Sequence record: NC_054931.1
Source of the DNA: Escherichia phage T2
Length of the DNA stretch: 64,000 nt
Strand: one strand, 5' to 3'
Part shown: in pieces, positions 44,763 through 63,987 of the stretch
Numbering within the stretch: position 1 is the stretch's first letter
How the letters are laid out: the number at the start of each line of letters is the position of its first letter
Translations under genes and position numbers: made by a program
The notes under the pieces: generated by a model
Seen by the model: the letters and a program-made list of their open reading frames with translations, nothing else
What the model was told of the DNA's origin: nothing
Databases searched by the model: none

Positions 44763-45146
44763 TTATTCCTTAATTCCTAGTACTTGTTTAAAAGTCTCAT
44801 CGTAATCAAGACTTTGGCCCGTTTGTTCTTTATGTTTGTATATAATATCACTTACTTCTGATAGCATATTTTTATATGAACGAGTTAAAGCTGATTTAAG
44901 CACGCTGTATCTATCAGGAAATTTACCATGTTCATTATAATAAGCTATTGCTAATTCACGGACTGCCTTTTCAGCAGTCTCCATATATTCTTTACGCTTT
45001 GTCATTTTCTTCTCGGTCAAATCGGTGTTTACAATGGCGACATTTATAACGAAGATTACTAGTCTGCCAATGGACCAATTGCACCTGTTCAGTTCCACAT
45101 TCAGGGCAATTAGGAACGTTTTTAGAAGCCCTTTCGCGGCGTTCAA
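44763..45146 (-). CDS. hypothetical protein
   Basis: 127-aa ORF. Confidence 0.35.
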
Positions 45147-45296
45147 CCATGACCATTACAGAATCCCAATTAACAGGAGGGCTAATCATCGCAACCATGA
45201 ATCTTTCCACGCACTTTCAGATCGTCTTCTTCACCAGCCATAATAATTTTAATTACTGGAATTACTAGAAGCTGCAATATCTTCTAATAGACGCTT

Positions 45297-60311: not shown

Positions 60312-60632
60312 TTATTCTTTAAATCTAATCAATTTATTCATAGACTTTGAAACTTCTGCACGAACCTCATGTAGATTTTTGAGCTGTTCAAGACGCTGCG
60401 TATAGTAAGCAATTTCATCTTCTTCGAGACAGTCCTGCGAATCTTCTTTAAGATACCGTGCATAGTCCTGGAAAGCGTTACGGACTACTTCCTGGAAGTC
60501 ATCAAGACTTTGAATTTTCTTAGGAGCAACAGATACACGACGAGGTGCAGTATAATACTCATAACCAAACCCTGCGCTTAATTGATCCATTAGTATTTTT
60601 CCTCTGGTTGGAACACTGCACGACAAGCCCAC
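60312..60632 (-). CDS. hypothetical protein
   Basis: 106-aa ORF. Confidence 0.35.
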
Positions 60633-60850: not shown

Positions 60851-61068
60851 TCATATTTGACTTCCTCACCAGTACATAAATCATATTCAACTAAACGAAT
60901 AGGTTCATGAATGCCATATCCCTGAACAGAAACTTCTGTCGTAGGATAAATTCCATCAATATCACCCATATTCCAGGCTTCATTAAATTGCTGTTCGCCT
61001 GAATTACTAAACCACTCGGCGAAAGCATTTATCACATCTTTAGAACCTTCAATAATTATCTTTGCCAT
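60847..61068 (-). CDS. hypothetical protein
   Basis: 73-aa ORF. Confidence 0.3.
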   Translation of the reverse strand: MAKIIIEGSKDVINAFAEWFSNSGEQQFNEAWNMGDIDGIYPTTEVSVQGYGIHEPIRLVEYDLCTGEEVKYD

Positions 61069-61430
61069 TACAAACTCTCGGTAAAGGTACGAGCGATAAC
61101 GTCGCGCTGCTGTTCCGGAGTCAGAGAGTTAAAGCGAACTGCATAACCGGATACACGGATGGTCAGCTGCGGATATTTTTCCGGATGCTTAACTGCATCT
61201 TCCAGAGTTTCACGACGCAGAACGTTAACGTTCAGGTGTTGACCACCTTCAATTTTAACTGTAGGTTGTGGCTCAATTTCAATTTCACGGGCATGCAAAC
61301 CATAGAAAATTTCTGGGTCTACAAAAGAGTCCTCTTTAAAGGTTTTAGAGACAATAATTCGTGCTTGAATACCATCTTCAAAATAAATAGTACCTTTATG
61401 TGTGCCTTCAAGAATTTGATATGCTTTCAT
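61068..61430 (-). CDS. autonomous glycyl-radical cofactor (GrcA/YfiD-like)
   Basis: 120-aa ORF; C-terminus [59 protein letters not shown] equals PFL/GrcA glycyl-radical domain. Confidence 0.85.
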
Positions 61431-61437
61431 ATAAACC

Positions 61438-61818
61438 TCAATTAGAAAATAAATTTATCCAAGATTGTTCTTTAATTAAAAATGGCTCAGAATCATATGC
61501 CATTAAACTGTGGGTAATTAATCCTTTAAAAGGTCCATCAATAAATTCCATGGTAAAATATGGAATTTTATTCATTAGCCGTGCATTAGGAGCAGTACAC
61601 AAAACTCTGCATCCTTTGAATACGCCTTTTTGTAATTTGTATTGCTTAGGATAAAATTCGCTTAAAATGTTATTTTTTGCCAAAATTTCAAAATGATTCA
61701 CCAATTTATTTTTAATAGTTTTTGGCGAAAAATAAAGATATTCGAAAAGCTGAGTGTCTGTCATCATTGCATTCCGATTACGAAAAACTGTGGACGAGTA
61801 ATACCACCAATACAACAT
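61438..61818 (-). CDS. hypothetical protein
   Basis: 126-aa ORF. Confidence 0.35.
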
Positions 61819-62299
61819 TTAATATTACAGCAGCAGTGTACAGTGTCAATATGGACACTATAAATCTTATCCATATCAGGAGATTTGACAGGCTCATCAA
61901 TTATATACAAAATTCGCGAAAGCGATAAACCTCTGAACTTGCTTCCTTTATTACCAATAACTGCGCACAGAATCAGTAAATAAACGAAAACGTATATCAT
62001 CATTAGAATAACGCGAAAATTCCTTTTTGATGTTATTTGCAGAAATTTTAGCGTAAGCTGAAGTATTAGAAAGAACAATAACTGTTCCGCCATCATACAA
62101 CCAATTAGCAGCAAAGTTAGTCACAGCAATTGATTTACCAGATTGACGTCCACCATCTAGTCGAAGTGTGCAATACTGTTTAAGTAAGTCTTCAAATGGC
62201 GGGATATTCGTTTTTACAAATTTCTTCTACTCTAGCATCAGAATGGTGTGTAAAAGCATTCATCAGGGATAGATAAGGACCAGTTAAAAATGTTCTCAT
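61764..62299 (-). pseudogene. P-loop NTPase-like gene disrupted by two frameshifts
   Basis: three frame segments: MRTFLTGPYL..., ...LDGGRQSGKS... (Walker A), ...ILYIIDEP... (Walker B); span 3n+2; first break near a T5/A5 homopolymer. Confidence 0.4.
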
Positions 62300-62439
62300 T
62301 TCTTCTCTCTAAATTTGGGCCATTCCATGGCGCATGAATTGTCCATTTCTGTATTTACCCATTACCGCGCTTGGGCTCGACATTATTACAGGTTGGCGGG
62401 AATCCCTCACAGAATCATGAGGTCCAGGTTGTTCCCATG

Positions 62440-62913
62440 TTATTTGAACGATTTAACGTACTGAATAGAACCTTTACTATTCACAAAGGCAATTTTACCA
62501 TTTTTGTTATACATGGTAGCAGTACGTTGATAGCCATAAGTTTGTTTACCAGATTGATAACCAACTAATGCGAAATTATCTTCACCCATTTTATTCTGTT
62601 TAGCGCGAATGCGTTCATGACCATGTGCCATAAGAACCTTAGCATCACCAGTTGCAATGGATCGACGAGTTTTTTCATCTTCAACTGTATTAACAAAGTC
62701 GTCAAATGAATCAAATTTAGCATGAGATTTATTATACAGTTTTCCATCTACTGCATAATTATATCCCTGTACATCCATCTCAACTTCTGTACCATCATCC
62801 AATACAGCAGTGATTTTCTGACCTTTTTTAAATTTCAAAAGATCAGTAAAAGATTCAGCAATAATTTGAGAATTAATAGCTGCTTCAGTAATAAATTCTT
62901 GATAGGTTTTCAT
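62440..62913 (-). CDS. head internal protein (IP) with capsid-targeting sequence
   Basis: 157-aa ORF starting MKTYQEFITE followed by second I-A-E site; matches IP capsid-targeting-sequence consensus. Confidence 0.65.
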   Translation of the reverse strand: MKTYQEFITEAAINSQIIAESFTDLLKFKKGQKITAVLDDGTEVEMDVQGYNYAVDGKLYNKSHAKFDSFDDFVNTVEDEKTRRSIATGDAKVLMAHGHERIRAKQNKMGEDNFALVGYQSGKQTYGYQRTATMYNKNGKIAFVNSKGSIQYVKSFK

Positions 62914-62966
62914 GTGTTTCCTTTAAATATTTTAATTAGTAATTGTCTATTCAAGTAACTGTGAAT

Positions 62967-62996
62967 ATACTATCACAATTCCAAGAGAAAGTAGAC
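62967..62996 (-). promoter_or_regulatory. early-promoter-like element upstream of IP gene (variant -35 GTCTAC)
   Basis: gtagac 62991-62996 with -10-like tagtat 18 bp away. Confidence 0.35.
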
Positions 62997-63000
62997 AATT

Positions 63001-63987
<987 letters not shown>

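Follow-up and report, generated by a model that had tools for sequence, protein, structure and literature searches.

The vs.8 gene of phage T4 lies in the same gene block as vs.3 (TadIV-1), an anti-Thoeris sponge (PMC13243611). In the study that described it, which also used the vs.8 promoter, each of T4 Vs.3 to Vs.8 was assayed for inhibition of type IV Thoeris, and Vs.3 alone inhibited it, which places vs.8 in an accessory, partly anti-defence block (PMC13243611). T2 carries a vs.3 gene, yet the phage is reported as sensitive to type IV Thoeris, and short Vs.3 homologues as inactive (PMC13243611). This was the only relevant paper mentioning vs.8 found in our literature search, and a search by T2 accession numbers found no paper on T2 genome annotation. 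Here we examine the T2 allele of vs.8 in a stretch of 64,000 nucleotides of T2 DNA (NC_054931.1), referred to below as the window, in which vs.3 occupies positions 60312-60590 on the minus strand.

The vs.8 locus of phage T2

The T2 allele of vs.8 (61764-62299, minus strand) is flanked by ip4 and vs.7, and all genes around it are on the minus strand. Positions 61000-63000 of the window are 100% identical to five GenBank T2 records and to phage SV76. In the GenBank record MH751506, the minus-strand gene order is nudE, e (lysozyme), ip4, vs.8-A, vs.8-B, vs.7, vs.6, vs.5, vs.4, vs.3 and regB. The break in vs.8 is already marked there, as a "Vs.8 N-terminal fragment" (vs.8-A) and a "Vs.8 C-terminal fragment" (vs.8-B), and nothing new is therefore established here about the gene structure of T2 vs.8. 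The same record annotates a T4 accessory ORF in the same style, as N- and C-terminal pieces nrdC.2-A and nrdC.2-B, which differ from the vs.8 fragments in belonging to another gene; the "NrdC.2 N-terminal fragment" and "NrdC.2 C-terminal fragment" lie at about 44996-45281 of the window (MH751506 44985-45270). Two features define the locus and its upstream border:

61764-62299, minus strand: the whole vs.8 pseudogene, starting at ATG (62299-62297, first codon of MRTFLTG) and ending at its native TGA (61766-61764)
62300-62436, minus strand: conserved leader upstream of vs.8, common to T2, RB14 and T4

In the annotations of T2, RB14 and T4T alike, vs.8 heads the vs.8-vs.3 block and lies immediately upstream of vs.7, the family's conserved position. 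T4 vs.8 occupies the same locus as the T2 allele, with the same ATGA overlap between the native vs.8 TGA and the vs.7 start, while its upstream neighbour differs, being denV (endonuclease V) in T4 and ip4 in T2 and RB14. A tblastn search with T4 DenV, confined to the 64-kb window, found no homologue in it. The lack of T4 v gene function in T2 is a classical observation and fits the absence of denV upstream of T2 vs.8. Within the leader, a 33-codon ORF (62309-62410, minus strand) ends in T2 at a TAG codon, 62309-62311. RB14 and Lutter share this TAG, but T4 has TAT there and its ORF stays open, so that the annotated T4 Vs.8 is 216 amino acids long (1102-1752 of the T4 locus, L004). The PHROG 1488 profile begins at MRTF and not upstream, which suggests that the N-terminal extension of the 216-residue T4 protein is probably either an artefact of annotation or peculiar to T4.

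Two 2-bp deletions and three frame segments

An earlier note, made from the letters of the window, had described a P-loop NTPase gene broken by two frameshifts. Minus-strand three-frame translation of 61764-62299 bears this out, yielding three pieces of Vs.8. Each lies one base further on than the previous one, so that both shifts are +1, as the note had read them. The segments and the lesions between them are as follows:

62192-62299, minus strand: segment 1, a 35-codon ORF with native Vs.8 residues 1-32 (MRTF...KNEY), then out-of-frame PAI and a TGA (62194-62192)
62204-62207, minus strand: lesion 1, a dinucleotide repeat cut from (AT)3 in intact alleles (ATATAT) to (AT)2 in T2 (ATAT) by loss of 2 bp
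61961-62203, minus strand: segment 2, native frame PPFEDLL...DSVRS, with Walker A DGGRQSGKS at 62131-62157
61959-61960, minus strand: lesion 2, a T-run cut from TTTT in intact alleles to TT in T2 by loss of 2 bp
61764-61958, minus strand: segment 3, native frame IGNKGSKF...VIGMQ and stop, with Walker B ILYIIDEP at 61890-61913 and a Cys-rich C-terminus

Segment 1 in frame 0 reads MRTFLTGPYLSLMNAFTHHSDARVEEICKNEY, followed by PAI and the stop at 62192-62194. In the next frame, segment 2 reads PPFEDLLKQYCTLRLDGGRQSGKS...FTDSVRS; after lesion 2 this frame continues with YW and then meets the tandem stops TAA TAA (61948-61953). Segment 3, in the third frame, reads IGNKGSKFRGLSLSRILYIIDEP...FFVIGMQ and ends at the stop at 61764-61766. 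With lesion 1, Ile33 is lost and the reading frame moves by +1. The note placed the first break near a T5/A5 homopolymer, and an A5 run does lie 3 bases upstream of lesion 1; the run itself is unaltered, and the lesion is in the ATAT(AT) repeat, not in the A5. The +1 direction of the shifts was also given correctly, but the lesions are 2-bp deletions rather than single-base changes. Both fall inside or at the edge of the ranges that had been proposed for inspection, 62190-62215 and 61935-61960.

The note also proposed a search for intact homologues in related phages. T2 vs.8 aligns with the intact genes of RB14 and T4 at ~98% nucleotide identity, and intact vs.8 matches are found in 1008 phage records, all from T4-like phages of enterobacteria. 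All three segments belong to one family, T4 Vs.8 (PHROG 1488). In alignments with RB14, T4 (T4T) and Lutter, the only indels within the vs.8 coding sequence are exactly the two 2-bp gaps, and restoring the four bases gives a 540-base ORF with a 179-residue product. This repaired T2 Vs.8 contains both Walker A DGGRQSGKS and Walker B ILYIIDEP and is identical to T4 Vs.8 at 176/179 residues, with all three differences also found in other intact alleles. The ~98% DNA identity to intact vs.8 and the restoration of the ORF by repair of two gaps show that the frame pieces are not a product of chance. As it stands, the T2 gene lacks the uninterrupted ORF of ~179 codons, owing to the two 2-bp deletions and the stops that follow them, and judged by its sequence it is a pseudogene member of the Vs.8 family.

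We conclude with high confidence that T2 vs.8 is an accessory gene, non-essential and recently inactivated, which has suffered two independent 2-bp slipped-strand deletions and gives no functional ATPase, in line with the "decay of an accessory ATPase" that the note had offered as one reading. The position of both deletions in short repeats points to replication slippage as the mutation mechanism. Slippage of 2 bp would have shortened (AT)3 to (AT)2, and a second, independent event would have shortened a run of four T to two. Besides the deletions, T2 has one unique base in the vs.8 coding sequence among the four sequences compared, a synonymous one at 61812, and the inactivation for this reason looks recent. 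As a counterpoint, two lesions in 536 bases with almost no other change are somewhat more than simple neutral decay would lead one to expect.

Lineage spread, possible products and consequences

The deletions are restricted to T2 and SV76. In a junction test, 76-base queries centred on each lesion were searched against phage records. For lesion 1, 623 phage records gave a match, of which the six from T2 and SV76 alone were exact; for lesion 2, 396 records matched, and the exact ones were again those six. The next-best matches span 78 bases for the 76-base query, that is, they carry 2 extra bases and the intact repeat. Neither deletion occurs in any non-T2 record among the several hundred T-even genomes compared. 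The T2-type chimeric product is also present in the RefSeq T2 record of 163,825 bp (YP_010073774.1), and a 79-residue T2-type product with the site-2 junction signature occurs in four contigs that Logan assembled from public runs. Scans of IMG/VR for the two T2-type junctions came back empty; the test is a weak one, since control scans with the intact junctions returned only one contig each.

These records bear on a sequencing or assembly artefact, in which the true T2 vs.8 would be intact and the frameshifts repeat-length miscalls. Such an artefact would fit the position of both lesions in short repeats, at least one private homopolymer difference elsewhere in the window (63535-63538), and the distance between the window and MH751506, which amounts to 3 mismatches and 6 indel events (9 gap positions) in 50 kb (window 1-50004 against MH751506 1-50000). 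It is hard to reconcile with two deletions that recur unchanged in six records, deposited by several submitters in different years, with the recurrence of the T2-type product in the RefSeq record and the four Logan run assemblies, and with lesions of 2 bp each, one of them in a dinucleotide repeat outside any homopolymer, unlike the usual single-base homopolymer miscall. The window starts 11 bases earlier than MH751506 and is identical to no single T2 record checked; its private differences are not common to other records, whereas the vs.8 deletions are common to all T2/SV76 records, which makes an assembly error very unlikely. The homopolymer-length error that the note had named as its second reading is thus contradicted, and we regard an artefact of any such kind as extremely improbable. 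Several of the T2 records may stem from closely related laboratory stocks, in which case the T2 lineage could amount to the common laboratory T2.

A separate difference affects the neighbouring ORF at 63001-63987 (minus strand). At 63533-63540, a run that is AAAA in MH751506 and in each of 505 matching phage records, those of T2 among them, is AAA in the window. The loss of 1 base at 63535-63538 removes the nudE stop on the minus strand (CTC TTT TAA becomes CTC TTT AAT...), and without it nudE reads in frame into the lysozyme gene e as one 328-codon ORF in this window. The loss probably reflects either a miscalled homopolymer or a mutation private to this assembly of T2.

A further rival reading is that T2 recovers a Vs.8 product during translation. 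From the preceding stop to Walker A, segment 2 contains neither ATG nor GTG nor TTG, so that ribosomes could reach the Walker A segment only by slipping +1. At site 1 the sequence is TAT CCC GCC, with CCC-G just after lesion 1. Low-level +1 slippage is possible in a CCC-G context, and trace read-through at this site is conceivable. Site 2 (AGT TAT TGG TAA TAA) has no slippery motif and no codon for +1 tRNA re-pairing, and is followed by two stops. Full-length Vs.8 made through two programmed +1 ribosomal frameshifts would agree with the shared direction of the shifts and with the slip-prone CCC-G at site 1, but the lack of a re-pairing codon at site 2 does not resemble a prfB-type site, and an Rfam scan of 61000-63200 found only a chance-level snoRNA match and no frameshift-stimulating element or structure. 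The arrangement is also unconserved: in a spread sample of 60 drawn from the 1008 matching records, 59 have vs.8 as a single contiguous match, and the T2 breaks occur in no other T-even genome of those compared, which means that they are not a conserved recoding device. We give programmed recoding almost no credence.

It has also to be considered that vs.8 is now a split gene, whose Walker B/C-terminal piece or 32-residue N-terminal helix is expressed separately and keeps some function. GenBank annotators called two fragment coding sequences, gene callers predict products of 79-110 residues ending in the native C-terminus, and the sequence is otherwise undecayed, although a recent origin of the lesions explains this last point equally well. 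The called fragments start at GTG or ATG codons that are out of frame or internal, with no ribosome-binding site shown, and the P-loop is untranslatable, with no in-frame start before it. The predicted fold, moreover, is a single alpha/beta domain with strands from all three segments, and the pieces are unlikely to fold alone. Separate function of the fragments is accordingly very improbable.

The favoured reading remains inactivation of vs.8 by the two deletions. Translation from the normal vs.8 start would end after 35 codons, the Walker A segment could not be initiated for want of an in-frame start codon, and the Walker B segment would appear only within a nonsense-fused peptide. A working Vs.8 ATPase would then be lacking in T2. 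Downstream, vs.7-vs.3 are undamaged, and their expression presumably relies on the transcript that also covers vs.8, on a promoter-like site within vs.8, or on both; as the native vs.8 stop overlaps the vs.7 start, any translational coupling would be lost in T2. The candidate internal site is the following:

61822-61849, minus strand: promoter-like site TTGACA-16 nt-TAATAT, 10 of 12 consensus positions, within the vs.8 3' end, ahead of vs.7

As a consensus match, this site could drive vs.7-vs.3 independently of vs.8, and phage Lutter carries a "promoter" annotation at the corresponding place; promoter-like sites are no more frequent in the region than chance would give, and no terminators were found there. 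Among these downstream genes, vs.6 (61068-61430, minus strand) encodes a GrcA/YfiD-type autonomous glycyl-radical cofactor and is so annotated in RefSeq relatives. Its C-terminal half appears to be nearly the same in sequence as E. coli GrcA; if so, the gene may have come from the host recently.

Damaged vs.8 alleles have also arisen independently outside T2. Phage Lutter (MT682714; ~1020-1035 of its locus, L005) has lost 1 base in the same T-run as T2 lesion 2. Phages EP32a and F25 encode Vs.8 products of 56 residues ending at the Walker A lysine. In two deletion fusions all or part of vs.8 is gone (P0082, P0083), and metagenomes hold frameshifted or internally deleted alleles (P0018, P0013); one frameshift lies near an A5 run. 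Some of these damaged alleles of other phages and assemblies may be assembly errors. From the loss in T2 together with the other broken or deleted alleles, we infer that vs.8 is dispensable under laboratory conditions.

The vs.8 break is real but ordinary, and matters little overall. The T2 allele offers a natural null for work on the Vs.8 ATPase, the product of a gene that is widely conserved yet dispensable in the laboratory, and the absence of a working Vs.8 from T2 is useful to know in T2/T4/T6 comparisons that map anti-defence or host-range determinants; one anti-defence gene of the vs.3-vs.8 block has already been found through such a comparison (PMC13243611). It is also possible, though unlikely, that the loss was selected rather than neutral, for example if Vs.8 were costly or sensed by a host defence in propagation strains. 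T2 would then be a natural vs.8 knockout, and T2 with and without T4 vs.8 on panels of defence systems could reveal the function of this conserved phage ATPase.

The intact Vs.8 family and its possible P-loop relatives

The intact gene is conserved among T4-like phages, with identity of Vs.8 down to ~35% in Klebsiella phages. RB14 Vs.8 matches phrog_1488, a family without assigned function, over its full length (E = 4.7e-79, profile positions 2-177 of 177). Family members are mostly ~160-185 residues long, and when 1.84 billion representative proteins were searched exhaustively with a profile, only 50 relatives emerged, all of 66-259 residues and none of them a terminase. Across 19 homologues (down to 39% identity), DGGRQSGK, two arginines and a C-terminal FxxG-Q are invariant, and the Walker B LxxxLxIIDEP is mostly so, with its Glu invariant and its Asp present in at least 90%. 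These invariant motif columns indicate that intact vs.8 is under purifying selection.

The motifs are those of a P-loop (ASCE) NTPase, with Walker A GxxxxGK[ST] as GGRQSGKS and Walker B hhhhD[DE] as ILYIIDE. An AlphaFold2 model of an intact homologue (P0002; mean pLDDT 81.8) shows alternating strands and helices in one alpha/beta domain. The best PDB matches in Foldseek are P-loop helicase and terminase domains, all weak (TM 0.4-0.5, E ~4e-4 or weaker), and comprise the first RecA-like domain of helicases (DSH9, SLFN11, RecD) and the ATPase domains of the P74-26 terminase and phi29 gp16. From its motifs and the model, intact Vs.8 thus appears to resemble a minimal stand-alone ASCE P-loop NTPase. 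Sequence searches of Pfam, NCBIfam, PADLOC and the PDB returned nothing above threshold. A decayed terminase gene was considered as the source of the T2 segments and rejected, since every intact member of the family is small and has a single domain.

The known systems closest to Vs.8 in motif and predicted fold are the ATPase domain of phage large terminases (T4 gp17-type, Terminase_6N) and domain 1 of SF1/SF2 helicases. With these Vs.8 shares the Arg-Gln before GK[ST], the Walker B hhhhDE and a predicted alpha/beta P-loop domain. The likeness of its Walker A to terminases, which the earlier note had pointed out, is present but weak: the profile match to the large terminase family phrog_2 is partial (E = 6.9e-6), and the match to Pfam PF03237 Terminase_6N reaches 12.8 bits, below the gathering cut-off of 22. 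Terminases are ~400-600 residues long, and the C-terminal RNase H-like nuclease domain is absent from the Vs.8 model, which contains nothing beyond the single domain. Being below the cut-off, lacking a nuclease domain and having a third of the size, Vs.8 is not a member of the terminase family; at only 179 residues, with neither a nuclease nor a second RecA-like domain, it differs from terminases and helicases alike.
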